DNA of 64,000 bases, taken from assembly GCF_017094525.1 (NCBI RefSeq), contig NZ_CP064788.1, positions 975,030 to 1,039,029 on the forward strand, given 5' to 3'. The notes beneath the pieces are model-generated. The model saw only the letters and a program-made list of their open reading frames with translations, was not told the DNA's origin and did not search any database. Positions within the stretch are counted from its first letter, which is position 1. The number at the start of each line of letters is the position of its first letter. Position numbers and translations under genes: made by a program. This stretch comes from Halapricum desulfuricans (GTDB taxonomy: Archaea; Halobacteriota; Halobacteria; Halobacteriales; Haloarculaceae). Of the stretch, positions 5,863 through 40,247 are shown piece by piece.

Positions 5863-6552
5863 ATGACCCGTTTGCGGCGGTATCTCGGCGAACGTCACCG
5901 CCTGCTCGCGTGGACGTTGCTGATCGCCGGCGGGGGCTGGGTCGCGCTGAGAGAGTACCCGCCCGAACTCGCCGCGTACGCGGATCGGCCGACGGCGGTC
6001 GCGGTTCTGTCGGGCGTGTGGCTGGCGGGCGTGCTGGTCGTTCGACGACGCGAGCGACGCGCCTGGCGACGGCTGATCGAGGCGACGCCGTTCGAACCGC
6101 AGCACGACGGCGGCCTTCGCCGTCCGCCGCTCCAGCGATCGCTGAAGGGCAACGTGATCACGGCAGAACCGGTCGCTCGCGGGCTCGTCCGCCAGCGCGC
6201 CGTCCGCGTCGAGGCGACGGCGGGCGGCGTCACCGAGCCGATTGACGTCGTGCTCACCTACGTCGGAAGCGGGGGCACCGATCGCGGGGTCCAAACAGGG
6301 ACCGACGTGCTCGACGAACAGTTCGTCTTCGAGGTCACGTCCGGATCGAACCTCGCGTCGGTGTTCGATGCCGAGGTCCAGTCGGCGCTGCTCGACGTTT
6401 CGATCCCCGGCGAACTGGGGATCGACGGACGACACGTCAGCTACGAGATCCCGTTCACCCGCGTCCGGCCGTCGGAACTCGGTGCCGTCTCGAAGGCGGT
6501 CGCAACGGTGACCGCCCGCATGGAACACCTCGTCGCCGCCGGTCGACTGTGA
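5863..6552 (+). CDS. hypothetical membrane protein
   Basis: Two N-terminal TM helices and coding-like composition. No recognisable domain. Confidence 0.45.
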   Translation: MTRLRRYLGERHRLLAWTLLIAGGGWVALREYPPELAAYADRPTAVAVLSGVWLAGVLVVRRRERRAWRRLIEATPFEPQHDGGLRRPPLQRSLKGNVITAEPVARGLVRQRAVRVEATAGGVTEPIDVVLTYVGSGGTDRGVQTGTDVLDEQFVFEVTSGSNLASVFDAEVQSALLDVSIPGELGIDGRHVSYEIPFTRVRPSELGAVSKAVATVTARMEHLVAAGRL

Positions 6553-21861: not shown

Positions 21862-22383
21862 TCAGCCGGTCGCGTTCTTCGGGACGACGAGGCGATCGCC
21901 CACGCCGACACCGGTCGCGTTTGCGTACCCGCGCGGGACTTCGAGGACGTACTGGCCAGTCCCGGGGTACCGCCGGAGGTCGTCGTCCGGCGTCTGTCCG
22001 GGGACGGGTGCGTGGTGGATCGTCGTGATCGTGCCGTTCGGGGCGGCGAAGACGATGTCGAGCGGGAAGTCCATGTCGCGCATGACGAACTCGTGGCGGC
22101 CGGAATCGGGAAAGACGAACAGCATGCCCTCACCGTCGGCGAGCGAGTCAGTCTTGCTGAGCCCCACATAGCGTTCACGCTGGCTGTCGGCGACTCGGAC
22201 GTCGACGGTCGCCAGTTCGGTTCCGTTTTCGTCGGCCAGCGTGACCGTGGCTTCCTCGTAGTCCAGCGGGTGCAGAAGGCCGCCGAGCGGCCCGGTCGGA
22301 TGCAGTGCCCAGAAGCCGACCACGAGGACGATGACCCCGACGGCGACGAGCGTAACGAGTCGGTCCCGGTCGGGCAACTCCAT
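21862..22383 (-). CDS. DUF192 domain protein
   Basis: N-terminal TM helix, then ...GLSKTDSLADGEGMLFVFP...MRDMDFPLDIVF typical of DUF192. Confidence 0.65.
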   Translation of the reverse strand: MELPDRDRLVTLVAVGVIVLVVGFWALHPTGPLGGLLHPLDYEEATVTLADENGTELATVDVRVADSQRERYVGLSKTDSLADGEGMLFVFPDSGRHEFVMRDMDFPLDIVFAAPNGTITTIHHAPVPGQTPDDDLRRYPGTGQYVLEVPRGYANATGVGVGDRLVVPKNATG

Positions 22384-22524: not shown

Positions 22525-22598
22525 GGGTCCGTGGTCTAGTTGGTTATGACGCGGCCTTTACAAGGCCGAAGTCGGCGGTTCAAATCCGCCCGGGCCCA
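22525..22598 (+). tRNA. tRNA-Val(TAC): tRNA-Val (anticodon TAC)
   Basis: Cloverleaf traced manually. Acceptor GGGTCCG/CGGGCCC plus discriminator A. Anticodon stem CGGCC/GGCCG with loop TTTACAA. T-arm GGCGG-TTCAAAT-CCGCC. No encoded CCA. Confidence 0.85.
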
Positions 22599-22691
22599 TC
22601 ACTGCCGTCGAACGGACGTGAGACGGCTGTTTTGCCGACAAGGATTTGAACCAGACGAGTCGCGCGCAGCGAGGCGAGCACGTCTCGACGA

Positions 22692-22718
22692 GGTTCACAA
22701 TCCGCCCGGGCCCATCAC
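22692..22718 (+). repeat. direct repeat of the tRNA-Val 3' end (26/27 nt identical to 22577-22602); att-site remnant
   Basis: ggttcaCaatccgcccgggcccatcac versus tRNA ggttcaaatccgcccgggcccatcac. Confidence 0.7.
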
Positions 22719-22720
22719 GG

Positions 22721-23215
22721 TCAAAACGGCAGTCCGTACTTGCTGAGATACTGTGCGAGCCCGGTGAAGTAGGCGATCAGCCAGAGGACGACGTAGCCGG
22801 CGACGCCGATCCGCAGTCGGGAGCGCCAGTGGTCCATACGGTCGCCGCCGATCTCCGAGAGCAACAGGTCCTCGTCGTAGTCGTGATAGAGGTCGTGTTC
22901 CCACTTGGCGCGGAAGATCCGGACGATCCCGGTGAGCGCGAAGGCGAGAAACGCGTACGCGTGTAGTCCGATCACGGCGTGGAGGACGCTGAACCCGTAA
23001 AATTGTTCGAGCAGGTTCGGAAGCATCCAGCCGACAAGCGGGATCGTCGTCAGCGCGAGACCGGTGAACACAACCGAGAGGTGTCGGACCAGCACGCTCC
23101 AGGTGACGGGATCGTTGTCGATCACGATCCAGGCGCCGTACAGAAAGCAGGGGAAACTGAGCGTCACCGAGAGCACGACCAGCGTCGCGACCGTCCCGTC
23201 GGCCAGCCCGAGCAT
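22721..23215 (-). CDS. DUF420 family membrane protein
   Basis: 164 aa, polytopic, conserved haloarchaeal membrane family. Confidence 0.55.
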   Translation of the reverse strand: MLGLADGTVATLVVLSVTLSFPCFLYGAWIVIDNDPVTWSVLVRHLSVVFTGLALTTIPLVGWMLPNLLEQFYGFSVLHAVIGLHAYAFLAFALTGIVRIFRAKWEHDLYHDYDEDLLLSEIGGDRMDHWRSRLRIGVAGYVVLWLIAYFTGLAQYLSKYGLPF

Positions 23216-23270
23216 TGGCGACCGTAGGGACGGGGTCGTTAAAGAGTGTCCGGAGGCGGTCAGCGTTTCA

Positions 23271-23350
23271 TACGGACTACTGTGCGTCTGTTCCGCATTG
23301 ACCGCCCGTATTCGGGCAGTCGGAGCGGTAAATCGTTACGGCAGTCCGTA
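23271..23350. repeat. intergenic hairpin repeat element, copy a (GTCTGTTCC...CAGTCGGAGCGGTAAATCGTTAC inside an 8-bp outer stem)
   Basis: Shares its conserved flanks with copies at 39041, 39207, 40248 and 56142. The internal hairpin covaries. Confidence 0.6.
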
Positions 23351-24592
23351 TCAATTGAGTGCGCTGACGGCCACATTCACGACTCGGTTGTCGGGATCGA
23401 TACGGCGGTTTCGCAGGATCTCGTCCGTCCGTTCGTCCTCGAGTTCGGCACAGATTTCGGCGACCGCGAGTCGGATATCAGGATCGTCGGCATCGGCGTG
23501 TCGCCTAAGGAAGTCAAAAACTCGATCCGGAATCCGATCGGACGGCAACTCCGAGCCGATCGAACGGACGGTCTCGGCATCGACATCGTCTGTGTCCACG
23601 TTCGCGAGTGTCGCCTCGACACCTGTCGATTCGGTCTCCGTGTTGGTTCCGTTGTCGGTCACTTCACTATCGGAGGCATCGCCTGTCTCCTGGGCTATCG
23701 GTTCGACCTCGCTTGTCGGACCAGCAGCCCCACTCTCGGCAGAAACAGACGCGTCAGTCTGCTTCGAACTGGATGGAGCCTCAGGCGCCGGGTTCTCTAT
23801 CGAGCCGTCGGTAGTCACCGAATCGGACGGCGAGTGACTGCTCGACGAAGTCTCGGTGCCGCTATCGCCACCAGAGGCACTGTGCTCAGGTCGGATATGG
23901 TCGTCTGAGGCCGTCGAGAGGACAGTGTGTCGTCCCTTCCAGCCGGCACCAAGGATCGATCCGAGGAATGCGAACTCGCCGAGCGAGATGAGAAACAGGA
24001 GCGGCCGATCGAGCCCCGGCGAAGGAGTGACGACGCCAAGCGGGGCAAGGTCGATCAGCGAGAGGATGCGCCCGAAGAGGAAAAGAAAAGTGAGGCCGAA
24101 GGCGATCATCCAGGTGACTTTTCGCTGCGCGCGAGCGATCACCGCGACAACGGCGATCGGTGCTGTCGCGAAGAGAGTTATACGGATAATATCTCCCATC
24201 GACAAATAGATGGTCGCGCTGGTGAGGACGGTCAGCGAAAGGATCGTCGCCACGAAAACGTAGCCAGCGTAGGCCGCGTACAGCGTCCCGAACCGGTCGA
24301 ACTGGGCCTGAGCGTCGGCATCCGGGAGTTGCGTAGCCGTCTCTGAAGGTAACGAGTCAATAGAGTCGGACCCGGGCTCTGGCGAGGACTCCTGCGTGTT
24401 CGAACCCGTCTCGCTGGCGTTCTTGGCGACGTCACTTGCAGTGCTCGTGGCGCTGGCTGCAGCACTCGCGGCTGTCCGCGATCCGCCGATCAGTTTCAGG
24501 ATCGCGGTCTTGATCGTCCGGAACGCGGACAGCACGACGAACAGAGGTGCCAGGGCGCTCTTGATCGGCGCCATGATGAGCCGTCGGAGCAT
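23351..24592 (-). CDS. membrane protein with C-terminal HEAT-like repeats, last gene of the accessory cluster
   Basis: Four TM helices, a Ser/Thr-rich linker and C-terminal ...IRLAVAEICAELEDERTDEIL...NVAVSAL HEAT-like units. Confidence 0.5.
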   Translation of the reverse strand: MLRRLIMAPIKSALAPLFVVLSAFRTIKTAILKLIGGSRTAASAAASATSTASDVAKNASETGSNTQESSPEPGSDSIDSLPSETATQLPDADAQAQFDRFGTLYAAYAGYVFVATILSLTVLTSATIYLSMGDIIRITLFATAPIAVVAVIARAQRKVTWMIAFGLTFLFLFGRILSLIDLAPLGVVTPSPGLDRPLLFLISLGEFAFLGSILGAGWKGRHTVLSTASDDHIRPEHSASGGDSGTETSSSSHSPSDSVTTDGSIENPAPEAPSSSKQTDASVSAESGAAGPTSEVEPIAQETGDASDSEVTDNGTNTETESTGVEATLANVDTDDVDAETVRSIGSELPSDRIPDRVFDFLRRHADADDPDIRLAVAEICAELEDERTDEILRNRRIDPDNRVVNVAVSALN

Positions 24593-24594
24593 GC

Positions 24595-25380
24595 TCAGAC
24601 CACCGCCGGGTACTGGGACTGGTCGACGCCGAGTGTCTCTAGCAAGTCCTGTGCGGGTGGTACGTCATCGGCCGAGGTCGCGGTCGCGACCCGGTCGAGC
24701 GCACCCTCGAGTTCTTCGAGTCGGTCAGTGACTTCCTCGAGATTCAATATCCGCGGCGACAGTGAGAGGTACGTCGATCCTTCGACCTCAATGAGGTCGT
24801 CCATGTCCATCGTCGGCATCCCCTCGTCCGGCAGTTCCAGCCGTCCGAAGCCGGTGACAGTAACGGGAGACGCCAGTTCGATCTCACCTTCGACGACGGC
24901 CTGTGGCAAGACGGTTGACACGTCGTTCAGTTTTGTCTGGCCGTAGGATTTGAACGTGTAGACGAGACTGTTCTGGGCAACCAGTTTCCGCTCTGCGCTG
25001 ACAATACCAATGACGGCGCAATTCTCAAGGATCACGTCGGTACCGACGACGTTGCCGTAGACGATTGCGTCCGTGAGGCGGATTCGGGTTCCCGTCACCG
25101 TTCCGTAGACAGTCGCACCCGACCCAGCGACCTTGCCGTCGGCTCCGACTTCACCTTCGACGCTTCCGTCCTCGAACTCGACACTTTCGGCCCCCATGAC
25201 CGAGCCTTCGACGGTGCCGCCCTTGATTTCGACCGTCTCGCCGTAGACGCTGCCCTGAACTGTCGCTCCCTCGTAGATACGGACTGGCCGTCCGATCTCG
25301 GCTTTGACTGTGGGGACGATCTTGCCGTCATAAGTTTCGCCCTCCTCGACGATGGCTCGAGTCTTTTCGATCGACGCCAT
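24595..25380 (-). CDS. bactofilin-domain (beta-helical polymer-forming) protein
   Basis: Tandem G-x-V-x-G-x-V beta-helix repeats (VQGSVYGETVEIKGGTVEGSVMGAESVEFEDGSVEGEV...) typical of bactofilin/DUF583. Confidence 0.65.
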   Translation of the reverse strand: MASIEKTRAIVEEGETYDGKIVPTVKAEIGRPVRIYEGATVQGSVYGETVEIKGGTVEGSVMGAESVEFEDGSVEGEVGADGKVAGSGATVYGTVTGTRIRLTDAIVYGNVVGTDVILENCAVIGIVSAERKLVAQNSLVYTFKSYGQTKLNDVSTVLPQAVVEGEIELASPVTVTGFGRLELPDEGMPTMDMDDLIEVEGSTYLSLSPRILNLEEVTDRLEELEGALDRVATATSADDVPPAQDLLETLGVDQSQYPAVV

Positions 25381-26307
25381 TCAAGATCCCCCCTCCGTAG
25401 CGACAGTTACCTGATCGTCCACTGCGTCCGCGACCACCGCTTCGTAGGACAGGAGCGGTCGACTGTCGTCGATGTGTGACTCCAGCCCATCGAGGATCTC
25501 CGACCCTTCGATCGTATCCGAACGAGCAGGGGTGAGAGACGTCCGCCCGACGAGTCGTTCCATTCCGGGGAAGGTATCGAGCGACACGTCGACAGGACCG
25601 TCCCTTGACGTAGCCTGGGACGGGGCGACGACGTGCTGTTCGGTCTGGCCGTCCCGTTCGACGGTCACGACGTAGTAGGGGACCTGAACCGTCGTCGGCT
25701 CGGGCTGTGGGGGATCAAACGAGGTCCGCGTCCGCTGGATCCGTTCGACGAGTTCGTGCTGCTGGTCGACGAACTCGTGGATCTCGGAGACGACCTCGCC
25801 GGTCGTGGATTCGATCCGGTCGTGGCGCCGCTGTTCGACCGCTTGGTTTTGGGACTGGAGGGTCTGCCAGGTCGTCGTGACGTGTTCGACGAAGGGTTGC
25901 TCGATTCCTTCCTCGAACTCCTCTTCGTCGATCTCGAAGATGTGAGCACCAAGATCTCGAATCCGTTTCGCGGCCTTCTCGTCGAGTTCCTCGTGTTTTC
26001 GCTCGTATCGCTCCGCGATCCGATCGAGTTGGCGTTCGAGTTCCTCGTGTTCTGTCTCGATACGCTCCTGTTCGGCCGTGATCTGTGGACGGATCTCTCT
26101 GACCTCCGCGACCCGCTCCATCATCTTCATCTCGGCCTGGGCCTGGATCGATTCATAAATCGCATCGATGAGCTCTTCGAAGCCCTCTTTCGCGACTGTG
26201 TGGACCTTTTTGACTTCTTGCCGGACTTCCTTGACAGACTTGAGAATATCACCGACCGTCTGGTGAATCCGCTTGAGGATCGGATGTAGGTCGTCGTTCC
26301 CAGCCAT
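25381..26307 (-). CDS. coiled-coil hypothetical protein
   Basis: Heptad-rich, charged; lower GC than the core genome. Confidence 0.5.
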   Translation of the reverse strand: MAGNDDLHPILKRIHQTVGDILKSVKEVRQEVKKVHTVAKEGFEELIDAIYESIQAQAEMKMMERVAEVREIRPQITAEQERIETEHEELERQLDRIAERYERKHEELDEKAAKRIRDLGAHIFEIDEEEFEEGIEQPFVEHVTTTWQTLQSQNQAVEQRRHDRIESTTGEVVSEIHEFVDQQHELVERIQRTRTSFDPPQPEPTTVQVPYYVVTVERDGQTEQHVVAPSQATSRDGPVDVSLDTFPGMERLVGRTSLTPARSDTIEGSEILDGLESHIDDSRPLLSYEAVVADAVDDQVTVATEGGS

Positions 26308-26310
26308 GGG

Positions 26311-27891
26311 TTAGGCCCCCCTCCGGTCGGGATGATTCGCACTGTTCTGGTTGATCGTGTGCGCGAGCCGTGCCGCGTTTTTGTCCTCCTCGGCCTGTTT
26401 TTTCCTCGCACGCTCGTCCTCTGCTGCCTGCTGGGCGGCGAGGAACTCACGCTGACGCTGGCGTTCGTCCTCGCGTAACATCTCAGCCCGTTGTTCGGCC
26501 TCGGACTCGGCCTGTTCGATACGGTCGTTGACGACCCCTTCGGTTTCTTCGAGGACGCGTTCGGTCTCCTCGTCGATCGTCTCGAATGCCTGGGAGACGT
26601 CTTGCCGGAACTGGTTTATCTTCTGTTCTTGCAGGCGATCGTACTCATCCATCAGGTCGCCGAGGACGTCGACCATCCCCTGTTTGGCCCGTGCCTCCGT
26701 CTGGAGATCCCGGATCTTCGAGCGGATGTCCTTGATGCGTTCTTCCACGGTCCGGATCTCCTCGCGTTGCTGTTCGTACTCGCGTTCTTGCAGTTCGGCT
26801 TTCTGGTCCTCGATAGACTCGTAGATCTCTCGACGCTGGTCGTCCTTCTCGATCCAGAGCTGTTCCCACACGTCAAGGACGATCTCGTCACGGATGCGAT
26901 GTCGAGGGATCCCCGCTGCCGGGTCAAACGACGACCGGCAGGTGTCACAGTACCACTCACCGTCGTCGCGAACTTCGAGTTGTGACTCGATGTCGTCTGT
27001 CATGCAGTCCGGGCAGTAGAAGTGATACGAGACGAGTCCGAACATGTCGCTGGCCCGTCGAATGTGATCGTTGAGCAAGTCCGTCGCCAACTCTTGGAGT
27101 CCGGAGAGGTCGTTGGCGATACGGCGGCTCTGTTCACTCACGTCGAGCAGGACAGATTCTCCATGGTCCTCGTCGGCCATCGACTCGAACTCGTCGAACG
27201 TCCGGACCTGTTCTGTCGCTTCCTCCTGCGACAGCGATACGCCCCCAGCGTCGACAGTGTCGTTCTCGGCCGACGGGACCAACCGAGACAGCGAATCGAT
27301 AGCTGGGTCCCCCTCATCAAGGACCGGGGCGGAAATCTCGTGGGTCTGACTGTCGTTGATCTCCGATCTAATGGTCGAAATGGTCTGGACGAACTCCTTT
27401 TCAACGTCGGTTTCGTCGGTCATCACGACAGGGTACTCACTCATCGAGTCCAGCGTCTGTTTGACCTGCTGTGCGTGTTCCGGGCTATCGAGAAGGCGCA
27501 ACTGAAACTGTTTTGACTCGATCGATTCCGTCGCGTCGAAGACCACCGTCCCGTCGTCGTCGGGGACGAGATGACCCGTCCAGTAGCCCTTCTCGATCGA
27601 CGTGACAGTCGGCTCTGGACTCCGGGAACGAACGTAGGCGCCGCCGCCGACACCGCCAACGATACCGACCCCAGCAAGCGCCAGTCCCGGTCCGGATTGG
27701 TTGGACGCCACCAGGGCGATCCCCGCGATCATCACAACGACGGCCGACACGACGACGAGTTTTAGTCGGGACCACTGCTGCTCGTAGTGATCTTCGAGGT
27801 CGTCGCTGACGGCCTCGTGAACCGCGATCGATTGGGCGTGTCGTTCGTCGACACCGTTCGAATTGACGTACACCACAGAGGGTATGCGCAT
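26311..27891 (-). CDS. membrane-anchored coiled-coil protein with a central zinc ribbon (CPDC...CDTC)
   Basis: TM helix near the N-terminus, a Cys4 ribbon (YHFYCPDC...WYCDTC) and a long E/R/Q-rich coiled coil. Confidence 0.5.
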   Translation of the reverse strand: MRIPSVVYVNSNGVDERHAQSIAVHEAVSDDLEDHYEQQWSRLKLVVVSAVVVMIAGIALVASNQSGPGLALAGVGIVGGVGGGAYVRSRSPEPTVTSIEKGYWTGHLVPDDDGTVVFDATESIESKQFQLRLLDSPEHAQQVKQTLDSMSEYPVVMTDETDVEKEFVQTISTIRSEINDSQTHEISAPVLDEGDPAIDSLSRLVPSAENDTVDAGGVSLSQEEATEQVRTFDEFESMADEDHGESVLLDVSEQSRRIANDLSGLQELATDLLNDHIRRASDMFGLVSYHFYCPDCMTDDIESQLEVRDDGEWYCDTCRSSFDPAAGIPRHRIRDEIVLDVWEQLWIEKDDQRREIYESIEDQKAELQEREYEQQREEIRTVEERIKDIRSKIRDLQTEARAKQGMVDVLGDLMDEYDRLQEQKINQFRQDVSQAFETIDEETERVLEETEGVVNDRIEQAESEAEQRAEMLREDERQRQREFLAAQQAAEDERARKKQAEEDKNAARLAHTINQNSANHPDRRGA

Positions 27892-27982
27892 ATGTAGCAC
27901 ATATCTCGTAGAAGGCATGATACATAGTTCCTACGCCTGGTAACCGCTCCGTCGGGTGGCGTCACGAGACTCGACTCCGCGA

Positions 27983-29260
27983 TCACGAACCGAATAGCTC
28001 GCGTAGCTGCCTGAACAGAGAACCAGCCACGTCCGAGAGGCTGCGTTCGATCTCAGTCGCTTCCGTCGTCTCGCCCGACGAGCGAGTCGCCTCGGAACGA
28101 CGGAGGCTATCCGTTTCAATACCGACACGTTCCCGGTCGAGAGTCCCGGACGCCTCGCCGGCGATACCGGGAGCGTCCGTCCGTCTCTGCCAGGGGAACG
28201 TCCGCATCTCCGTCGACTGGGACTGGTCCCGGATTGTATCGAGGACGCTGCTGTCTTCCGCACGAGCGGCGAAGGAACTCCCCTCGGCGAAATCGCTTCG
28301 AGCGCGATGACGGCTCGTCGATCCGCCGACATCGGTCGAATAAGTACCACCGGAACAGCACAGAAGCGACACCGACTCGTCGAGGACAACCGCACGGAAC
28401 AGCGCAGTCAGATCACGTCGGAAATCGAGCATCGATTCGTATCGCTCGTCCCGTTTTTTCGCAAGGGCCGTTCCGAGGACCCCATCGACCGCTGCTGGAA
28501 GGTCGGGATCGACCTGTGTCGGCGGGTCAGGTGCATCAGTGAGATGGTGGTTCATCACCGCTTTGGCGGTGCCTGTAAACGGTGGATGCCCGGTCAGGAG
28601 CTCGTACACTACTGTCCCGAGCTGGTAGATGTCAGTTCGATCGTCCGGCGGCCCGAGCGTCTCGGGATCGAACTGTTCCGGTGCCGAGTACCGCGGTGAG
28701 AGTCCGTTCACCTCCTGTGAGTGGTGCAACAACAGTTTGGACAGTCCCCAGTCGCTCACCTTCGGAACGTCCCAGGTTCGGTCGTCGGTCGTCCGAAACA
28801 GCACGTTCTCGGGTTTCAGATCGAGATGTGCGACACCGTAGCGGTGGGCGTCCCGGACAGCGTTCGCGACCCAGGCACCGATCCACAGCGCTTCACCAAA
28901 GTCAATCTCACCGGTTCGGTCGGCAAGCGAGCCTCCGTCCATGTACTCCAGGGCGATCCAGGGAACCGGTGTCGAACCCCAGTCGACGATACCGACGATC
29001 CCGTCGTGGCTGTCGATCTGCTCCCACGTTTCTGCCTCCGAGACGACCCGCTGGGCGAGTTCCCGGTCCAGCGTCCCCTGCAGGCGCGGTTGCTTAACTG
29101 CCAGCACGGTGCCGTCCGGAGCACGCATCTTCGTTACGTCGGCTGTTCCTCCGATACCGATCTGCGCCTGCTCTTCCAGCGTCGAGAGATCAACATCGAT
29201 CGCTGGCGCCGCGGGCACGTGCTCTGGGATCGCCGTGTGATCAGTCGGCGATAGATTCAT
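27983..29260 (-). CDS. Hanks-type serine/threonine protein kinase
   Basis: VAIK-like AVK, HLDLKPENVL catalytic loop, SDWGLSK (DFG-equivalent) and APE motifs. Ser/Thr-rich C-terminal tail. Confidence 0.85.
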   Translation of the reverse strand: MNLSPTDHTAIPEHVPAAPAIDVDLSTLEEQAQIGIGGTADVTKMRAPDGTVLAVKQPRLQGTLDRELAQRVVSEAETWEQIDSHDGIVGIVDWGSTPVPWIALEYMDGGSLADRTGEIDFGEALWIGAWVANAVRDAHRYGVAHLDLKPENVLFRTTDDRTWDVPKVSDWGLSKLLLHHSQEVNGLSPRYSAPEQFDPETLGPPDDRTDIYQLGTVVYELLTGHPPFTGTAKAVMNHHLTDAPDPPTQVDPDLPAAVDGVLGTALAKKRDERYESMLDFRRDLTALFRAVVLDESVSLLCCSGGTYSTDVGGSTSRHRARSDFAEGSSFAARAEDSSVLDTIRDQSQSTEMRTFPWQRRTDAPGIAGEASGTLDRERVGIETDSLRRSEATRSSGETTEATEIERSLSDVAGSLFRQLRELFGS

Positions 29261-29469
29261 TGGACCCGACTAGCCGTATCCCGGTTCGGATGGGGTTCCC
29301 GAATCCGAAGCGGATATCTGGTCGCCCCCCTCTTGACGAGCGGGCGTCGGAGGGGGACGCTGTCGAATCCATCGGACGCGGTGTTCGGACGCACAGTTGT
29401 ATGCCAGTCTGGCACGATAAATAGTGTTTCGCTCGTTTCATAAAGTACTGGCCACCGGATAGGAGCCAG

Positions 29470-30240
29470 TCACACATCAGTGAGGTCCTCGCCGCACTCG
29501 GGACAGACCTGCGCTTTCGCGGGGATGGACTCGCCACAGAACAGACAGTACTTGCGAGTTCGTTTGTCTGCCGAACGTTCGGCCTCGCACTTCGGACAGA
29601 CCGGACCGGTATAGGTGATCCCATGAGTCTGACAGCTGTTTTGCGTGTCCGTTTCGCTGACTGTCTCCGGCGCGTCACCGGACGTGGCGCTCTGTGAGTT
29701 ACCACCGACGTTCGACCTGTTGACGACACTATCGTCGACGGTCACGTCGCCACCCCGCGAATCTTCCCCCGCCTGTCCGGGGCCGATGTCCGATCGGTTG
29801 ACGACGCTGTCGTTGACGGTCGTGCTGTTGTCGACCTTATCGCCGGCGACGTAATCGCCGCCGCTGACTTCGATCCGGGCGTCGCGCTCGACGGTCAGGC
29901 GGAGTTGGGTCTGGTAGCCGAGTTCGATCACCGCGTCTCGACGCACGCGCTCGCTGAATCCCTCTTCGATGTCGTGGGAGTCCCCTTCGGTCCGGACGAC
30001 GACGCCGTTAGAGTTTCCCCGGTTACGGACTTCGATCGACTCCGGCTGTGGGACGAACACGACAGGCGGATCGTCGCCTTTCTTCTTGGAGACGGTCACG
30101 TCCGCGATCCCGAGCGGTGCGACGCCGGTTTCGGTCTCGACGACGACTTCTTGATCCCGGGCGGGATCGCGGTAGACCTCCGTGCGTGACTCGATCGGGA
30201 CGGCCCCATTGTCGGTCCTCTCGGGCGAGAGATAGCCCTT
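29470..30240 (-). CDS. double zinc-ribbon protein with internal tandem repeats
   Basis: C-terminal CPKCEAE...CLFCGESIPAKAQVCPECGEDL. Tandem DSVVNRS(D/N)(I/V)G repeats, also visible at the nucleotide level. Start at MKGYLSP. Confidence 0.55.
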   Translation of the reverse strand, partial: KGYLSPERTDNGAVPIESRTEVYRDPARDQEVVVETETGVAPLGIADVTVSKKKGDDPPVVFVPQPESIEVRNRGNSNGVVVRTEGDSHDIEEGFSERVRRDAVIELGYQTQLRLTVERDARIEVSGGDYVAGDKVDNSTTVNDSVVNRSDIGPGQAGEDSRGGDVTVDDSVVNRSNVGGNSQSATSGDAPETVSETDTQNSCQTHGITYTGPVCPKCEAERSADKRTRKYCLFCGESIPAKAQVCPECGEDLTDV

Positions 30241-30346
30241 CATGCCTCTCTGCAAGCGTATTATATCTGGGAACCCATGAAAATGTGGGAATATGTCTGA
30301 TGCATATACATAGACCCAGACAAGCGTTTGGCCGCGACTTCGGGCG

Positions 30347-31117
30347 TCACTCCCGCATGTACGCCTGCTCGACCCGACTTGCGATCCGCTCGACACGCCT
30401 GATCCGATCCTCGGCCAACTCCCCATCCGTACCCAGCGCCTCGAAGGCCTCGATCAATCCCTCGACATCTTCCCGGACGTCCTCGTAGGCGCTATCGTCG
30501 ACGGGATGTTCGGCCATGAACTCCCGAACTTCCTCGGCGCGTTGGAGACACGCTGTCGCGGAGTCGTGGGCAGCTGCTTCCAGATGCTCCGCAAGCGACT
30601 GCCCGAGATAATCGACCGCCTCTTCACCGCCCTCGTCTTCCTCGTCGCTACCTTCATCTCGTTCCATCCGGGTGATATCCGACAGTCGCCGCCGGGCACG
30701 CCTGCGCTCGTCTTCGTAGGTCGCGTTGCCGGCGATCTCCGCCAGCGCCTTCCCCACTTCGCCCCGGAGCGTCTCACCCAGACCGGCATAGATCTCCCGG
30801 AGCGCGTCGATAGCGTCTAGCCGGTCGTCCGAAAACTTCGAATCATCAGCGAGTTCGGTTAGCGTCTCGACGACGACCTCTTCAATCGGGTCTGACTCGC
30901 TTTCGAAACAGGCCAGCAACTCCTCGCGGGCCAACTCGCGCTCGTCGCGGTGAGTCGACTCCAGTGTGATTTCCCGGAACGCCTCAGCGATAGTCCGCTT
31001 GTCCTCCACGGGCGCGTCCGGATACAGCTCGGCCAGCGACTCGATGGCCTCCTCGCGATCCCGCGAATAGGGCGAATCCAGCGCAGTCTCGCGATGCGTG
31101 TCGATGCTGTGCTGCAT
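30347..31117 (-). CDS. acidic alpha-helical repeat (HEAT-like) protein
   Basis: Repeated ...A.ESL.EL.......A..L.E... units. Start at MQHSIDTH (ATG 31115-31117). Confidence 0.45.
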   Translation of the reverse strand: MQHSIDTHRETALDSPYSRDREEAIESLAELYPDAPVEDKRTIAEAFREITLESTHRDERELAREELLACFESESDPIEEVVVETLTELADDSKFSDDRLDAIDALREIYAGLGETLRGEVGKALAEIAGNATYEDERRRARRRLSDITRMERDEGSDEEDEGGEEAVDYLGQSLAEHLEAAAHDSATACLQRAEEVREFMAEHPVDDSAYEDVREDVEGLIEAFEALGTDGELAEDRIRRVERIASRVEQAYMRE

Positions 31118-31118
31118 C

Positions 31119-32882
31119 TCAGTCACCTCCGAGGTCGTGGCCGCAATTGAGGCAAAACTCGTCGTCCGGCTCGACTTCCGCCTCACACTCGGGACAGACG
31201 ACGACCCGATCGGTACCGGAGTCATTACTACCGTCCGAGTCACTACCGCCGCCCTGGACGATCGTGGTGTCGCCGTCGTCGCTGCGCCCCGGATCGGAGA
31301 CGATCACGTTGTCGGAGGTGTCTTCGGCCGCGGCTGTGCCGGTCTCGCTCACGTTGTCCATCGCGGACTCGCTGGTCTCCTGTACCCGGTCCATCGAATC
31401 CGCAGCGATGTCTTTGATCTCCTCGCGGAACTCCTTTTGATCCTCGGCACGCTTGCGCTCGGCCTCGGCGTTGTGGGCCTCCTGGCGGGCCTTCGCGAGT
31501 TCGTCGGAGTCTTTCGCGCCAAGCGCTTCCAGTTGCTCGGGGGTGAGGTCCTCGGCAGCCTCGATCTCGGCGATCTCGGAGACGGCCTCGTCGACACTGT
31601 CCATACTCGCAAGCGTCGAAAGATCGACTTCGTCGCGTGCCCGCAGACGCTCTTTCTCGACTTCGGCCTCGTGTTCCTCGCGGCGCATTTCCAACTCATC
31701 TTCGCGTTCCTCGACGTCGAGACCGTCCATATCCTTCTTTTTCTTGAGGTGCATCAGGTCCTCGATCTCATCGACGTCCTGCTCGTGTTCGAGTTCGCGC
31801 CGTTCGACCTCGCCCTCTTTTTTCGTGGTTTTGATCTCTTCGGTGTGCTCAACGTCCTCGCGTTCGGCCGTGTGCTCGTGGCGGCGCTCCATGTCCGACT
31901 TCTCGTGTCGGTGTTCGATCTCCTGGGTCTCGATCTCGTGGTCGGCGGCCTGCTCGCTGGTCTCCCGGCGGACGCGCTGCTCGTTTTCGTGAACGCTGTC
32001 CGCAGTCTCGCGCTCGCGATCCCGGCGGTCCAGTCGGGCTTCGTCGTCCTTGATATCCTCCTCTTTCTCGCGGATCTCGACGTCCTTGTTCGCCTCGCGG
32101 ATGTGGTCCTGATCGTCCACGAAACTGACAGACAGCAGATCGACCAATCGAAGACCGTACCGCTGGAGGGCCGAGCGACAGGCACGCTCGATATTCTGAG
32201 CGAGTCGCTGTTTGAGTTCGCGATTACCATAGACGTCCTCGCGGTCGTACTCGCGCATCGTCGCTTCCAGTTCGTCCTCGATCGGACCGCCAAGCACCTG
32301 TTGGAAAGTCCGGCTGGTGACGGTCCCGCGGTCGGAAAGCAGACTCGTAAACAGTGTCATCGGATCGTCGACATCGATGGCGAGTTCGAAAGCGACGTCC
32401 AGCGGATACTCGCTGGCGGTCCGAGCACTCGCTTCGAGCGTGACCGTTGTCTCACGGCGCTCGATCAAGATTGCCGCGATGTCGCCGGTCTTCTGCAAGG
32501 ACGTGATCTGCTCACCCAGCGAGTCTAGCGTATGTTTGCCCGGTCCCAGCCGCTCGACGACTTGCCCATCGTGCACGAAAAGCGCCTCGTTGCCGGCCTC
32601 GATCGAGACCTGCTTTCGCCGTGTTAGTTTCCCCCAGAGACTATCGGATCCGAGCTCGCCGGCGTCGGCACGGCGAGCGAACTCGTGCGGTTTCAACCGG
32701 AGTGCGCCGTCCTGAGACGCTGTTGTCGGGCCGAGTTCGGCACGGCAGTTCGGGCAAAAGTTCGCCGCTGCTGGCACGGCTGTCCCGCAGTCGGGGCAAG
32801 TCCGCTCGACGGACGCACCACACTCACTGCAGAACGTCGCCTCGTCAGGCAGCGAGGCCCCGCAGTCGGGGCAGGTCGTCAT
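31119..32882 (-). CDS. SPFH/band-7 (flotillin-like) protein with N- and C-terminal zinc ribbons and a long charged coiled coil
   Basis: N-terminal CPDCG...CSECG...CPDCG...CPNC. SPFH core SIEAGNEALFVHDGQVVERLGPGKH ... YGLRLVDLLSVSF. E/R/K-rich flotillin-like coiled coil. C-terminal CPECEAE...CLNCGH. Confidence 0.65.
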   Translation of the reverse strand: MTTCPDCGASLPDEATFCSECGASVERTCPDCGTAVPAAANFCPNCRAELGPTTASQDGALRLKPHEFARRADAGELGSDSLWGKLTRRKQVSIEAGNEALFVHDGQVVERLGPGKHTLDSLGEQITSLQKTGDIAAILIERRETTVTLEASARTASEYPLDVAFELAIDVDDPMTLFTSLLSDRGTVTSRTFQQVLGGPIEDELEATMREYDREDVYGNRELKQRLAQNIERACRSALQRYGLRLVDLLSVSFVDDQDHIREANKDVEIREKEEDIKDDEARLDRRDRERETADSVHENEQRVRRETSEQAADHEIETQEIEHRHEKSDMERRHEHTAEREDVEHTEEIKTTKKEGEVERRELEHEQDVDEIEDLMHLKKKKDMDGLDVEEREDELEMRREEHEAEVEKERLRARDEVDLSTLASMDSVDEAVSEIAEIEAAEDLTPEQLEALGAKDSDELAKARQEAHNAEAERKRAEDQKEFREEIKDIAADSMDRVQETSESAMDNVSETGTAAAEDTSDNVIVSDPGRSDDGDTTIVQGGGSDSDGSNDSGTDRVVVCPECEAEVEPDDEFCLNCGHDLGGD

Positions 32883-32952
32883 AGTTGCCCCCCATGCAGC
32901 GAGTCAAGACGGTTTGGGTCAGTCGATACGCGCGTAGTGGTCTGCTCGTGTG

Positions 32953-33717
32953 TCATCGTGGATTATCTCCCTGATCGAGGCGCTGCTGTCGGCGTTCGAG
33001 GGCGGTTTCGAGGTCGCGGAGCCGGCGGTGAACCGTCTCGAAGTGTTCTCCGGCGGGGTTAGGAAGAGACTGCTCTAGGGCGTCAAGTTCCTCGTGGAGC
33101 CGGTCGATAGCCGCCACGAGATCCGTATGAATAGAGACAACGGCCGAACGATCGCGAAGAGATACGGCATCAGTAGATATGCCGTCCTGTGGACTCGTTA
33201 TTCGCTGTTCGGCCTGCCGGACGGTTTCGGCCAGCGAGCCGACTCGGGCGGCAGCGTCCCGGTCACCACTCTCGACGAGTCGATCGTGAACGTCGTCAAG
33301 GACTGACCTGGCCGCCGCGAGCTCGGTAGCCAGGTGCGATCGAACCTCGGCGTCGACGCTGGCGATCGAATCGGGCGACGAGTACGGCTCCGAGACGACG
33401 TCCCTGAGCGGTTCCGGAACGTCAACCGCGTCGGGCTGAGGGGGTGTCGACAGATCAGCCGCTGCTGGCGCAGACGCGGCTTCGGAGCTGTGGCGGGCAA
33501 AATGATACGCGATCCCCCAGAGAAACGCCAAAGCGGTGGATATCAGCAACATGCCGGTCACGGACTCGGGCAGCGAGAGGCCGACAGTCGAGAGCACTGA
33601 ATCACCGATCGACCGACTGATCCCCGTCACAAGGGACGTATGAGCACTGATGTATGCGCCGAGGACGATACTTCCGAAAGAAGCGATCGCGTGTGAAGCG
33701 CCTGTCTTGGCCGGCAT
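32953..33717 (-). CDS. membrane protein, possible SPFH partner
   Basis: Three N-terminal TM helices and a helical C-terminal domain. Confidence 0.4.
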   Translation of the reverse strand: MPAKTGASHAIASFGSIVLGAYISAHTSLVTGISRSIGDSVLSTVGLSLPESVTGMLLISTALAFLWGIAYHFARHSSEAASAPAAADLSTPPQPDAVDVPEPLRDVVSEPYSSPDSIASVDAEVRSHLATELAAARSVLDDVHDRLVESGDRDAAARVGSLAETVRQAEQRITSPQDGISTDAVSLRDRSAVVSIHTDLVAAIDRLHEELDALEQSLPNPAGEHFETVHRRLRDLETALERRQQRLDQGDNPR

Positions 33718-33720
33718 ACG

Positions 33721-34929
33721 TCACCTCTCGTATCCCGTCAGTGTCGCCTCGGTCTCCTCGATCGCCCGTTCGAGATGGGATTGAGTGATCGGCTGGACAT
33801 CGTCACTCTCGCGGGCGTCTTCGAGGGCGTATCTGGCGGCATTGGTCGCAACGATCTCCAGATCGCGCGCCGAGTAGCCCGCCGTCTGTCCCTTCGTCGT
33901 TTCCCAGTCGATCTCTTCGTGGAGGACCGGTCGATTCCGGAAGTGAACTCGCAATATCGCTGCGCGTGCCGGTGCGTCAGGAGGGGGGACTTCGATCCGC
34001 TCCTGAAAGCGGCTAACTGCGGCGTCGTCGACTTCCTCGGGGAGGTTCGTCGCGCCGACAACGATCACATCCTCGCCGCGGGTTTCGGTGAGTTCAGTCA
34101 GAAACTGGTTGACCATCTGGCGTTCGCTCTGAGTCTTCTGCGAGCCGCCGCTTCGGGACGGCATCAGGGCGTCGATCTCGTCGACGAAGATCAGACATGG
34201 CTGGTTCGATCGAGCGACCTCGAACAGCTCCGCGACGTTGTCAGCCGCTTCCCCGACCAGTGAGCTGGTGATGTCCGTGGCCCCGATCTCGATGAAATTG
34301 TAGCCGAGCTCTCCGGCCAGGGCGTTCGTAATGTACGTCTTCCCGGTTCCCGGCGGCCCGTACAGGAGGATCGCGTTGACGACGCCGAGATCGTACTCCT
34401 CGTAGAGGTCCGGCCGCTCCAGCGGATCGATCACGGTGTCTCTGAGTGTCTCCTTGAGCTCGCCCATCCCGCCGACGTCCTCGAAAGCCATCTCGGGCGG
34501 CTCTTCGAGAAATCCGCTCGCGTCCGTCTCTGTATCCGGTGTGGCTGACGACACCCCACTCGGCCGGGAGCCGTTGTTTCGACCGTCTGACGACTTCCCG
34601 CTCGCCGACGGAGTACTGTTCGGTGGCGTATCTGACCTCAATGGCCCATCGGGAGCATCTGCACCCGTTCCCGGCTGCTGACCGTCGAGCGAGCCAGCCC
34701 CTTCGAGTCGCTCGGCAGCCGTTCGAAGGTTTTCGGCGAGTTCGTGCCGCTTCGTCGCGAGCCGATCGCTCGACTCGGCGTTGGCGATGTCTTCGAGCGT
34801 CTCCGCACACTTGCGGTAGAGCTTCGCGGCTTTCTCGGCGTCACCGCGTTCCCGGTAGGCGTCGGCCTTCACCCGGTACTGCTCGTAGTTGTCCTTGAGG
34901 ATCTGCTTCTGGGCCTGATCTTCGATCAT
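33721..34929 (-). CDS. MIT-domain AAA+ ATPase (Vps4/CdvC-like)
   Basis: N-terminal MIT-like three-helix region (MIEDQAQKQILKDNYEQYRVKADAYRERGDAEKAAKLYRKCAETLEDIA), a Ser/Pro-rich linker and an AAA domain. Walker A GPPGTGKT, Walker B IFVDEID, SRH ...AVSRFQERIEVPPPD. An alternative start at 35001 would overlap the upstream gene. Confidence 0.75.
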   Translation of the reverse strand: MIEDQAQKQILKDNYEQYRVKADAYRERGDAEKAAKLYRKCAETLEDIANAESSDRLATKRHELAENLRTAAERLEGAGSLDGQQPGTGADAPDGPLRSDTPPNSTPSASGKSSDGRNNGSRPSGVSSATPDTETDASGFLEEPPEMAFEDVGGMGELKETLRDTVIDPLERPDLYEEYDLGVVNAILLYGPPGTGKTYITNALAGELGYNFIEIGATDITSSLVGEAADNVAELFEVARSNQPCLIFVDEIDALMPSRSGGSQKTQSERQMVNQFLTELTETRGEDVIVVGATNLPEEVDDAAVSRFQERIEVPPPDAPARAAILRVHFRNRPVLHEEIDWETTKGQTAGYSARDLEIVATNAARYALEDARESDDVQPITQSHLERAIEETEATLTGYER

Positions 34930-34966
34930 CGCGGGTCCTCCGATCGTTGCGCCGCCCGAATCATGG

Positions 34967-35689
34967 TCAGATCGTGCCGATGTCTTCGTCGAGGTCCTCA
35001 TCGAGGTCGGCGTCGAGACTCACCTCATCGAGGCCCTCTTCAGCTTCAACTTCCTGTTCGACGTCGATCTCTTCCTCGGAGATCTCTCCCGCCGCCATCT
35101 CCTCCATCATCTCCATCTCTTCGCTGTCTTCGGTCCCCATCTCGACGTTCATCACATCGATGTCCAGCCCTTCCTGAACCTCCTGCATGATCTCCATGTC
35201 GAGGTCGAACTCGACCATCTGATTCATCATGTCCTCCTGAACGGACTCGACGTCGACATCACGTTCCCGGATGATCTGTTCGATTTCGGTCGTGTCCCCA
35301 TCGTGCATGTCCTGGAGTTCGCGCGCCCCTTCTACGCTGACGACCGTCCCGAGGACAACGCTGTTTTTCTGGTACTGCTTCTTCTTTAGTTTGTACTTCT
35401 TTTTCGCAATCTGTGCCTTCTTCGCGTAGCTTTCCCGCTCGATTTCGTTCGTCTGTGCTCCCTTCTGGAGCAACTCCTTGTACTCGTTTGCATACTGATT
35501 CATCTCCTGTTCGATCCGCTTGCGCTGCTTGCGGAGTTTGATCTTGTCCCGACGGAGGTCCTCGTCGTTGTAGACTGCCTCATCAAGCAGGGAATTGGCC
35601 GATTCACCGAAGTAATCCTGTACCCAGTTGCGAACTTGCATGGTTGGTGTGTATGTTTGGATTGGCAAATTACTTTGCACGCGATCCAT
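34967..35689 (-). CDS. ESCRT-III/Snf7-like coiled-coil protein with an acidic C-terminal tail
   Basis: Basic N-terminal helices (LRRDKIKLRKQRKRIEQEMNQYANEYKELLQKGAQTNEIERESYAKKAQIAKKKYKLKKKQYQ). Central and C-terminal Met/Glu/Asp-rich helices (MMNQMVEFDLDMEIMQEVQEGLD). This is the Snf7/CHMP charge asymmetry, and the gene sits next to the MIT-AAA ATPase. Confidence 0.55.
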   Translation of the reverse strand: MDRVQSNLPIQTYTPTMQVRNWVQDYFGESANSLLDEAVYNDEDLRRDKIKLRKQRKRIEQEMNQYANEYKELLQKGAQTNEIERESYAKKAQIAKKKYKLKKKQYQKNSVVLGTVVSVEGARELQDMHDGDTTEIEQIIRERDVDVESVQEDMMNQMVEFDLDMEIMQEVQEGLDIDVMNVEMGTEDSEEMEMMEEMAAGEISEEEIDVEQEVEAEEGLDEVSLDADLDEDLDEDIGTI

Positions 35690-35967
35690 CAGATCTCTGG
35701 TTCAAACACCAGCAGCGTCCCGAGCACGCCCAGCACCGAGCCAGCGGCGGCAGCCAGCACCAGCAACTTCATCTCCGAAACGGTGACCGTCAGCATCTCC
35801 TCGCCGAACGTCGCCTCGGCGTAGATGATCGCTGCGCCAACGAGTACGCCGCCGAACGCCCCAGCCGCGACCCGCTGTTCCATCAACTTGTACACGCCCA
35901 ACACGAGGGTCGCAGCGACGAGGAGGTTCAGTACGAACGCGCCTCCGATCCAGAGTGTGATCGACAT
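35689..35967 (-). CDS. small membrane protein (three TM helices), first gene of the accessory cluster
   Basis: 92 aa, hydrophobic; its start codon overlaps the next gene. Confidence 0.45.
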   Translation of the reverse strand: MSITLWIGGAFVLNLLVAATLVLGVYKLMEQRVAAGAFGGVLVGAAIIYAEATFGEEMLTVTVSEMKLLVLAAAAGSVLGVLGTLLVFEPEI

Positions 35968-36330
35968 GGCTTTGTCAGCTCACGTGACCAACATCCGTGT
36001 CTACCCACTTAAATTTACCTACTATCTGGTTCTTCTACTGAATATCCATTTTGGAGAAGAATGTGTATCGAATATTCACACTCGTAGACGATCAATAGGC
36101 CGACAAAGTGGGGTATAGCGACCCGTTTGTGCGCTGTACACGACCGAGCGTCGTTGAAAGCGACCACTGTGCCCACAGACTGCTTGCCTCCGATTTGGAG
36201 AAAAGCTTTAGTTATTGGCATCGGAGATATAGAACAGAGATGAGACAGTCAGGTATGCGGACCCGCGCAGTCCGGTCGATCGGGGCAGTCGATCGACGTG
36301 AGAGGTGGCGGTCAGTGCAGGTGTTCGCCC
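35968..36330. promoter_or_regulatory. AT-rich divergent promoter region between the minus-strand cluster and the plus-strand gene pair
   Basis: About 45% GC with TATA-like motifs (tttaaatttacc, atattcacact). Confidence 0.5.
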
Positions 36331-36852
36331 ATGAGTGGTGAGTCAGATGAGGAGTACCTGTTCGTGGTCGACTACAAGTCGGACGCCGAGCGCAAACGCG
36401 TCGAGTATCTGTTCGAGAACGCGGACGGCGAGATCGAGTCGCTCGAAGGGCTGTCACGGATTGCGCACGATGTCGACCACGAGGCCATCTACGAGCAGCT
36501 CGTCTCGAAGGTCCCCGACGAGCAAGTCACGGCGTATCGTCTCGAACCGGTCGACATCGCGGCCGAACCCGAGCGCGTCACCGTCGAGCAGACGATCGAC
36601 GCGGCACCCGAAACCGTCGAGACGTTCGTCGAGTACATGCTCTCGAAGAAGAAAGCGGTCCTCCAGTCGTCAGCACGCAACGTGTACGAAGTCTACACGA
36701 AGAAAGGCCGTGCGGAGATCAGCTACGAACTCGACGGCGACGGCGGCGGGACGGTCGCCAGGATCCGGATCGACGGCTATCCGCCAGCACCGTCGTTTCT
36801 CGCCGAGTTCTTCGAGACCGAACTGACAGATTATGCGGAGAGCCAATTATGA
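36331..36852 (+). CDS. hypothetical acidic protein
   Basis: 174 aa from MSGESDEEY. Overlaps the downstream gene by 4 nt. Confidence 0.5.
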   Translation: MSGESDEEYLFVVDYKSDAERKRVEYLFENADGEIESLEGLSRIAHDVDHEAIYEQLVSKVPDEQVTAYRLEPVDIAAEPERVTVEQTIDAAPETVETFVEYMLSKKKAVLQSSARNVYEVYTKKGRAEISYELDGDGGGTVARIRIDGYPPAPSFLAEFFETELTDYAESQL

Positions 36853-39005: not shown

Positions 39006-39040
39006 TAAATTCTGACAGTGAAACGAAAGCCAAGATTCGC

Positions 39041-39117
39041 AGTGATTACTGTCAGTCTGTTCTGGATCGACCGCACGAAGGGGTGCAGTCGGACCGGTAA
39101 ATCGTTGCAGTAACGAC
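39041..39117. repeat. intergenic hairpin repeat element, copy b
   Basis: GTCTGTTCTGGATCGACCGCACGAAGGGGTGCAGTCGGACCGGTAAATCGTTGC flanked by an imperfect outer stem. Confidence 0.6.
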
Positions 39118-39206
39118 TATCAAGCGTGCTTGCCGACAGTGGGGCAGAGCCAGCAGTGATCGACGAGATGGGGTTCTGGAACTGCGGTCAGTGGATCGAG
39201 ACACTC

Positions 39207-39287
39207 ATACGGTCGGTTGTAAGTCTGTTCCAGATCGATCGCATCCGTTATGCGATCGTACCGGTAAATCGTTACAACCGACCGTAT
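39207..39287. repeat. intergenic hairpin repeat element, copy c (perfect 16-bp outer stem)
   Basis: atacggtcggttgtaa ... ttacaaccgaccgtat encloses GTCTGTTCCAGATCGATCGCATCCGTTATGCGATCGTACCGGTAAATCG. Confidence 0.65.
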
Positions 39288-39400
39288 CAGCTATTGCGGG
39301 CCGAATACGATCCCGATGCCAAGCGCACCACCCTGCGACTGCAGAGACCTCACGCCGGTGAACGATACGTGTAAGGCCCCGGAAACCGAATCTATGGCTA

Positions 39401-40240: not shown

Positions 40241-40247
40241 TCGTACG

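Follow-up and report, generated by a model that had tools for sequence, protein, structure and literature searches.

This analysis addressed the question of why the tRNA-Val(TAC) gene in a 64,000-nucleotide stretch of Halapricum desulfuricans DNA (contig NZ_CP064788.1; the whole stretch is hereafter called the window) is followed at short distance by a second copy of its own 3' end. The original prediction had read this duplicate as an attachment (att) site scar at an integration hotspot, left by cycles of integration and excision or by the decay of an integrated element. Comparison with other haloarchaeal tRNA loci suggests a different answer, in which we place modest confidence: on balance, the duplicate probably closes one approximately 115-bp, decaying unit of an apparently undescribed, cassette-like family that is tied to tRNA 3' ends. 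Searches of the literature returned no description of such tRNA-linked hairpin units, which is not proof of novelty.

The tRNA-Val(TAC) gene is the sole tRNA called by ARAGORN in the window (Table 1), has the acceptor stem GGGTCCG/CGGGCCC with the discriminator base A, and does not encode the CCA end. The first of the two direct copies consists of the last 21 nt of this gene plus 5 nt of trailer and thus spans the last two bases of the T-stem 5' strand, the T-loop, the T-stem, the 3' strand of the acceptor stem, and the 5-nt trailer. As described originally, the second copy repeats this segment with one inserted C, and the exact 20-mer AATCCGCCCGGGCCCATCAC is restricted to the two copies across the 64 kb with three mismatches tolerated (chance expectation 0.01); a third copy of the att core, for which a downstream search had been proposed, was thus not present within the window. 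The two copies are separated by only about 89 bp, in which a first hairpin (HP1), with a stem surrounding a conserved tandem G.A mismatch, is followed by a reversed partial copy of the T-arm. This reversed fragment in the spacer had likewise been recognized correctly; it is the reverse complement of the tRNA T-arm core (its counterpart in the window tRNA is GGTTCAAATCC), and in the predicted fold it pairs with copy 2 as the 5' arm of a second hairpin (HP2). The interior of HP2 resembles the module of the Natronorubrum type (see below) minus its GAAC..GTGA apex. All modules of the family are present in the window unit (22578-22718), with the HP2 apex shortened and a 1-nt insertion in copy 2, and alignment with the loci L081 and L002 shows that about 11 nt of the relatives' trailer are gone before the stop codon of the next gene. 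The latter is a core gene with a DUF7321 domain, which is convergent with tRNA-Val and whose stop codon abuts copy 2.

Table 1. Coordinates of the tRNA-linked unit and of the features around it (positions refer to the window).
Feature	Position	Strand	Evidence and remarks
DUF192 gene, divergent from tRNA-Val	21862..22383	-	tRNA-Val/DUF192 pair conserved across Halapricum
tRNA-Val(TAC) gene	22525..22598	+	ARAGORN; Rfam tRNA model, 67.5 bits, E 3.6e-14
Direct copy 1, GGTTCAAATCCGCCCGGGCCCATCAC	22578..22603	+	Sequence; exact 20-mer search
HP1, GCCGTC-GAAC-GGAC-GTGA-GACGGC, then TGTTTT	22604..22627	+	Single occurrence of the motif in 64 kb
Reversed partial T-arm copy, GGATTTGAACC	22642..22652	+	Sequence; predicted fold (5' arm of HP2)
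HP2 interior, stem AGACG/CGTCT around AGTCGCGCGCAGCGAGGCGAGCA	22653..22691	+	Comparison with the Natronorubrum bangense unit
Direct copy 2, GGTTCACAATCCGCCCGGGCCCATCAC	22692..22718	+	26/27 match, one inserted C; 3' arm of HP2
DUF7321 membrane-protein gene	22721..23215	-	Pfam PF24007, E 9e-74; 75 homologous loci recovered
Low-GC island (~16 kb) in the DUF7321/DUF7319 intergenic region	23255..39312 (approximate)		Empty site in CP064787; DUF7319-DUF7321 adjacency; junction sequences
DUF7319 gene, ancestral divergent neighbour of DUF7321	39401..40240	+	Comparison of loci

The evidence for a family comes from loci behind other haloarchaeal tRNA genes. A metagenome scan with the 22-nt tRNA end yielded at least 120 loci, selected by this one 22-mer. 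Among the matches listed, 20 of the 48 loci with a GC content above 0.57 carried two to three same-strand copies spaced 100-153 bp apart, at least five further loci (L120, L123, L147, L175, and L184) had a unit in which the second copy retains the T-arm only, and the 100-153-bp spacing was not seen at low-GC loci. The tRNAs at the metagenome loci were Val(TAC) and Met(CAT), some of them bearing introns. BLAST searches with the window unit retrieved two more units, one following tRNA-Val(CAC) in Natronorubrum bangense (828-kb replicon) and one following a Glu-like tRNA in Natrinema thermotolerans (987-kb replicon), each of which duplicates the different 3' end of its own tRNA and carries a matching reversed copy. 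At least 32 distinct units were gathered from hypersaline metagenomes and these two Natrialbaceae replicons, located behind tRNA-Val, tRNA-Met, and Glu-like tRNA genes. The order of parts was common to 32 of 32 units, namely a direct 3'-end copy, hairpin 1, a reversed and diverged copy, a second GA-rich stem-loop, and the next direct copy. They measure 100-153 bp, stand singly or in tandem, and lack open reading frames (ORFs). The reversed copy was located at the equivalent position in all 32 units, where it forms the base of the long hairpin HP2 together with the next direct copy, and its sequence varies with the tRNA: GGCGG(A/T)TTGAAC at CCGCC tRNAs, CTGGGATTTGAA at a CCCAG tRNA, and GGCAATTTGAACC at a CTGCC tRNA. 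The genes directly 3' of ten arrays were ordinary cellular genes.

Modules of the window unit have their closest relatives at different places. Outside its own species the window HP2 is closest to the N. bangense tRNA-Val(CAC) unit (73% identity), compared with 64% identity to HP2 of the sister species H. hydrolyticum, which in turn is 81% identical to a tRNA-Met unit on another contig. The window HP1 was recorded as identical in CP064787 and H. hydrolyticum, whereas the HP1-level comparison gave 88% identity for H. hydrolyticum. The loci L113 and L201 have their first unit in common, and L201 carries an extra, unrelated second unit.

Several further observations were made on these arrays. At L120, L147, L175, L184, and L123 the second copy is split, such that GGTTCAAATCCGCC is followed by one to two extra hairpins (e.g., GGAAGAAC-GAG-TTCTTCC or CTCAC...GTGAG) before CCCGGGCCCA resumes; the copies thus take up further hairpin modules between their T-stem and their acceptor strand. 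At L113, L149, L160, L167, and other loci, tRNA-Val(TAC) and elongator tRNA-Met(CAT) share an identical 3' end of approximately 25 nt, GGTGGTTCAAATCCGCCCGGGCCCA, which carries a T.G wobble in the T-stem and would fit homogenization by the same recombination process. On the Haloarcula halophila plasmid CP119561.1 (L220, ~5913-6058) a putative tRNA-Cys(GCA) gene that was missed by ARAGORN has its T-stem 5' strand (GTCGG) and its T-loop split by about 69 nt, including the same GUCGCGCACAGCGAAGCGAGCACGUC module; it belongs to a 23-gene tRNA array, with genes for a family-B DNA polymerase and a TROVE (Ro60-like) protein on either side.

The hairpins of the units share structural features that go beyond their sequence. 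An HP1 core of the form GAAC-N3-7-GUGA between covarying stems was found in 20 of the 32 units (examples of such stems are GCCGUC/GACGGC, GCUGC/GCAGC, GCCGC/GCGGC, and CUGC-GA-G/C-GA-GCAG), and many second hairpins carry the same GAAC..GUGA motif at their tip. In predicted minimum-energy folds, 43 of 59 2x2 internal loops had GA/GA on the tRNA-sense strand, and for 26 of 32 units the sense strand gave the more stable fold of the two strands (by 3.9 kcal/mol on average, p = 1e-4). Because of the GA/GA loops and the sense-strand stability, the units are best described as a structure of one strand, be it RNA or single-stranded DNA, and do not agree with a double-stranded, protein-binding palindrome. 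Taken as models, the folds point to a one-strand hairpin structure under selection.

It could be argued from the same data that the units are primarily structured RNA, co-transcribed with the tRNA and serving in processing, in regulation, or as a decoy, or arising as a by-product similar to the rtT RNA of Escherichia coli; the reversed copy would then pair alternately with the tRNA 3' half or with the downstream copy, and tandems would be formed by duplication. The units indeed always lie on the tRNA-sense strand, and besides their tandem G.A mismatches conserved between covarying stems and their more stable sense strand, the sequence AGUCGCGC.CAGCGA..GCGAGCA is kept in the loop across families. 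The module inside the putative Haloarcula plasmid tRNA-Cys gene also sits like an intron between T-stem and T-loop. We nevertheless regard a primary RNA function as unlikely, since no Rfam family matched the units (at E-values up to 10 the tRNAs themselves were the only matches), the 5' acceptor strand of a tRNA-like minihelix is lacking, and neither a bulge-helix-bulge nor the bulge of a kink-turn (K-turn) nor an ACA box could be fitted. The strain-variable number of units (see below) and the eroded window copy argue against strong selection at this locus. Moreover, tandem G.A pairs and hairpins of the GCGAAGC type are also stable in single-stranded DNA.

Several known structures were rejected on inspection of the sequences. 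A degenerate second tRNA or minihelix would need a 5' acceptor strand, which is lacking; in a bulge-helix-bulge intron the loops would be staggered, but here they face each other; a canonical K-turn would have a 3-nt bulge, which is absent; and for an H/ACA guide RNA there is neither a pocket nor an ACA box.

The history of the unit was followed by comparing the same locus in relatives. The chromosome CP064789.1 of a sister strain matches the window at 98.9% identity along 20.5 kb, and its tRNA-repeat region is identical. At the junction in CP064787.1 there are three tRNA-end copies (116-bp period x2.1 at 99% identity), the third of which is diverged and partial and abuts the same DUF7321 stop codon, so that the number of full units is one in the window, one in CP064789, and two in CP064787. 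H. hydrolyticum, whose DUF7321 protein is 91% identical, has one unit; its direct repeat is about 43 nt long because its second copy keeps trailer sequence that is absent from the window. Since the duplication and the same downstream gene are common to CP064789, CP064787, and H. hydrolyticum, the duplication predates these lineages. An ancient fixed feature, which had been named as the finding that would speak against an integration site, thus agrees with the shared duplication and shared downstream gene, but not with the variation that was found. The structure is a tandem repeat that starts inside the T-arm, was inherited by two species, and is still changing in copy number; in general, the arrays gain and lose units, and the number and identity of units differ between close relatives.

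The two 99%-identical 116-bp copies in CP064787 compared with one in the window are exactly what unequal crossing-over between the direct copies would produce, and one explanation would be a plain tandem duplication of the tRNA 3' end and its trailer, by slippage or unequal crossing-over, with no mobile or functional meaning. Such a process accounts for the growth of an array but not for its first unit. It also leaves unexplained why units that follow other tRNAs, and in other families, contain a reversed copy and GA-hairpin modules as well, and why relatives without the duplication have an unrelated trailer and no spacer, and we consider it very improbable.

The genes on both sides of the unit tell of a rearrangement. 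Among the 75 loci recovered with DUF7321, only in H. hydrolyticum does a tRNA adjoin this gene, and every genome with DUF7321 after tRNA-Val carries the repeat. The other Halapricum genomes and the metagenome contigs, among them H. desulfuricans CP064791.1, have a 54-codon ORF, HycI, and a NiFe hydrogenase operon after DUF7321. H. salinum and metagenomic relatives show tRNA-Val and DUF192 in the same divergent arrangement as the window, and the stop codon of a PMT_2 glycosyltransferase gene lies about 18 bp past the tRNA 3' end; the trailer at these loci is unrelated and T-rich, and the repeat is absent. A classical empty site, i.e., the same tRNA and the same downstream gene without the repeat, was not found among the relatives compared, and the expectation that relatives would show tRNA-Val directly followed by the same core gene was not borne out, as unit-free relatives have PMT_2 there instead. 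From the PMT_2 flank after the tRNA and the hydrogenase flank after DUF7321 in unit-free relatives it follows that the repeat sits exactly at the junction of two once-separate regions; it marks a synteny breakpoint, or rearrangement junction, in Halapricum.

These results allow the scar to be weighed in its classical form, in which the tRNA is attL, the duplicate is attR, and a large element that once separated them was reduced by internal deletion to about 89 bp. In its favour, the repeat runs from the T-loop into the trailer and reaches about 43 nt in H. hydrolyticum. A repeat of this extent is said to be typical of the identity blocks of tyrosine integrases in tRNA genes, as Williams reportedly described in 2002. 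The locus is also rearranged relative to relatives, and haloarchaeal elements do target tRNA 3' ends (PMC5861418). What does not agree with a scar is the content of the spacer, which consists of modules in the same order as in 31 further units (100-153 bp) that follow other tRNAs. Neither a fragment of an integrase nor an element gene was found, the old downstream flank (PMT_2) was not found after copy 2, the virus and plasmid collections contained no matching attP, and the window did not show the arrangement of SNJ2-type haloarchaeal integrases, in which the int gene lies 48 bp from a 14-bp core in the tRNA 3' end (PMC5861418). Because the random remnants, element genes, and old flank that it predicts were not seen, the scar is the weakest of the three mechanisms considered (recombinase, RNA, and scar), and we judge it quite unlikely. 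The original prediction is thus supported by the geometry expected of tRNA recombination, the synteny breakpoint, and a copy number that varies between strains; the decayed-element remnant gives way to a defined architecture of about 115 bp that is common to dozens of units and to which neither an integrase or element gene nor a virus or small plasmid could be linked.

The search for a linked mobile element was extended to several collections. Pfam searches of the region found no integrase or element gene between or beside the window copies, the flanks being DUF192 and DUF7321, and no integrase was found next to the window unit or ten other arrays. Scans of viral contigs with the trailer 25-mer and the 22-nt core gave no matches, a looser hairpin-plus-T-arm pattern matched only ordinary tRNAs in viral contigs and nothing relevant in 12 high-GC loci, and a metagenome scan with the window trailer hairpin gave no matches. 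BLAST of the window unit and 19 concatenated units against the phage collection likewise returned none, and against the plasmid collection only the large chromosome-like replicons of Natronorubrum and Natrinema and a 28-nt match in a Haloarcula tRNA array.

The comparison with known systems can be made along the same lines. The attL/attR pairs of tyrosine integrases (SNJ2-type, SSV, and pNOB8) resemble the units in their direct repeat of the tRNA 3' end from the T-loop region, in leaving the tRNA intact, and in their association with genome rearrangement; they differ from the window in its fixed modular spacer of about 89 bp with neither integrase nor attP donor, and from the haloarchaeal units generally in that the reversed copy lies 40-60 bp from the direct copy, where a core site would have the two side by side, and in that units stand in tandem. 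The nearest described pattern appears to be the tyrT locus of E. coli, where tandem repeats of 178 bp lie behind the tRNA and in the same orientation, each with the tRNA-Tyr 3' end (rtT RNA, Rfam RF00391), and where unequal crossing-over presumably alters the copy number. The haloarchaeal units share with it the tandem arrangement behind a tRNA and the 3'-end copy in each unit. They differ in organism and sequence (without an Rfam match) and add a reversed tRNA copy, GA-mismatch hairpins, and an association with several tRNA types.

Integron attC sites and the attP of CTX-phage are alike in other respects: a long imperfect palindrome with inverse-core and core arms (here the reversed and direct T-arm copies), structure that is kept over sequence, a strand-specific hairpin, and head-to-tail units by a fixed primary site. 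In the haloarchaeal units, however, there is no linked IntI-like or Xer-like gene and no ORF, the core is the tRNA T-arm and not GTTRRRY or dif, and single-strand recombination is only inferred. Repetitive extragenic palindromic (REP) sequences, bacterial interspersed mosaic elements (BIME), and miniature inverted-repeat transposable elements (MITE) are small hairpin-forming intergenic repeats clustered downstream of genes as well. The haloarchaeal units, in contrast, show no dispersal (the 64 kb contain a single HP1 motif, by the tRNA), lack terminal inverted repeats plus a target-site duplication, and are tied to tRNA 3' ends, with a sequence partly set by the adjacent tRNA. An insertion of the IS200/IS605 type was also tried and rejected; its mechanism produces no duplication.

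By analogy with these systems a route by which such units may spread can be proposed. A first unit would arrive at, or be copied to, the segment between the T-loop and the 3' end by recombination that restores the tRNA, most likely through a site-specific recombinase acting on a hairpin-forming site as in folded attC and CTX-phage sites. A recombinase of folded single strands would explain the imperfect palindrome with target-like arms, the strand bias, and the head-to-tail arrays. Arrays would then expand and contract by unequal crossing-over between direct copies, for which CP064787 and the window would be a direct example, and chromosomal rearrangement could start from direct and inverted copies, in agreement with the Halapricum junction. 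A role of the transcript after co-transcription with the tRNA may exist beside it, as the two are not exclusive. In its fullest form, the proposal would be that gene-less mini-cassettes are inserted as folded single strands into haloarchaeal tRNA T-loops by a recombinase of the host or of an element, as an archaeal equivalent of integron attC or CTX-phage integration that is directed at tRNAs, that the resulting arrays drive rearrangements, and that their transcripts may act on tRNA maturation; as a whole this is put forward tentatively, as a speculation that we hold to be somewhat improbable.

Several points weigh against the reading of the duplicate as part of a cassette-like family. The window unit is eroded (1-nt insertion, apex deletion, and shortened trailer) and may be inert, and the mechanism is deduced from anatomy alone. 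No recombinase tied to the units was found, and the viral contigs and the phage and plasmid collections contained no attP, no copy in a virus or small plasmid, and no free or circular form. The structure statistics are those of predicted folds and of a hand-anchored comparison. From a plain MAFFT alignment of 20 long hairpins, which is not structure-aware, RNAalifold returned only four trivial pairs and did not recover the hairpin, and the folding z-scores of whole units in the window were only about -1.6. Selection by one 22-mer also means that the frequencies among the metagenome loci are not genome-wide, and the assignment of the metagenome contigs to the Halobacteria was based on GC content, tRNA type, and sample names.

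If the family is real, many haloarchaeal tRNA genes would have a structured, fast-changing appendage that is absent from databases. This would bear on the annotation of tRNA fragments and islands and on gene-order breaks at haloarchaeal tRNA genes, possibly also on the processing of tRNA transcripts, and the units would be candidates for a new archaeal recombination substrate or small RNA.

The low-GC 12-gene cluster that had been placed about 600 bp beyond the duplicate does follow it, yet according to the empty-site comparison it starts at about 23255, i.e., approximately 540 bp past the duplicate, and the DUF7321 gene intervenes. In nearly all of the 75 loci, as well as in CP064787.1 and H. 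hydrolyticum, DUF7321 and DUF7319 are divergently adjacent at a distance of about 115 bp, and the island is absent from CP064787.1 and H. hydrolyticum. Because a core gene stands between the repeat and the island, and because the empty site lies elsewhere, the tRNA repeat does not bound the island; the idea that the island was part of the tRNA event was therefore rejected, and the 16 kb were inserted independently. Island calling routinely takes partial tRNA duplicates as element footprints, which here would mis-site the island.

The island encodes a Ser/Thr kinase, a classic AAA ATPase, and several zinc-ribbon proteins, besides proteins of the HEAT-repeat, bactofilin-like, and long coiled-coil types. 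Domains of an integrase or transposase were not found in its proteins, and scans of them for defence systems and with NCBIfam models gave only sub-threshold, domain-level matches (PD-T4-6/MADS6 kinase and IetA). Its ends carry three copies of a structured element of about 85 nt in the same orientation, one on the left (~23270-23353) and two on the right (39044-39123 and 39207-39288). Their outer stem covaries (ATACGGACT.../...AGTCCGTAT versus ATACGGTCGGTTGTAA/TTACAACCGACCGTAT), the internal loops GTCTGTTCC and CGGTAAATCGTT are conserved, and an inner hairpin is present. The middle copy (39036-39128) had a folding z-score of -1.9, and the outer two reached about -5 to -8. The element is missing from the empty site, and its 12-mer was otherwise found only in one Salinirubellus locus (L074). 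The 13-mer ACGGCAGTCCGTA occurs both in the last DUF7321 codons (22727-22739) and in the right arm of the first island-end element (23340-23352), with a chance expectation of about 0.002 in 64 kb.

At the same DUF7319/DUF7321 spot, a different two-gene insert (proteins of ~555 and 204 amino acids with no Pfam match) is present in H. desulfuricans CP064791.1 and many metagenome contigs (L077 7345-10000, L078-L080, and L093-L098); as different inserts occur there, it is this intergenic region, and not the tRNA, that is the recurrent insertion site. Finally, a 362-codon ORF at 39398-40486 on the reverse strand was conserved in 60 loci according to tblastn, yet it is the antisense shadow of DUF7319, which illustrates that long antisense ORFs in high-GC DNA can appear conserved.

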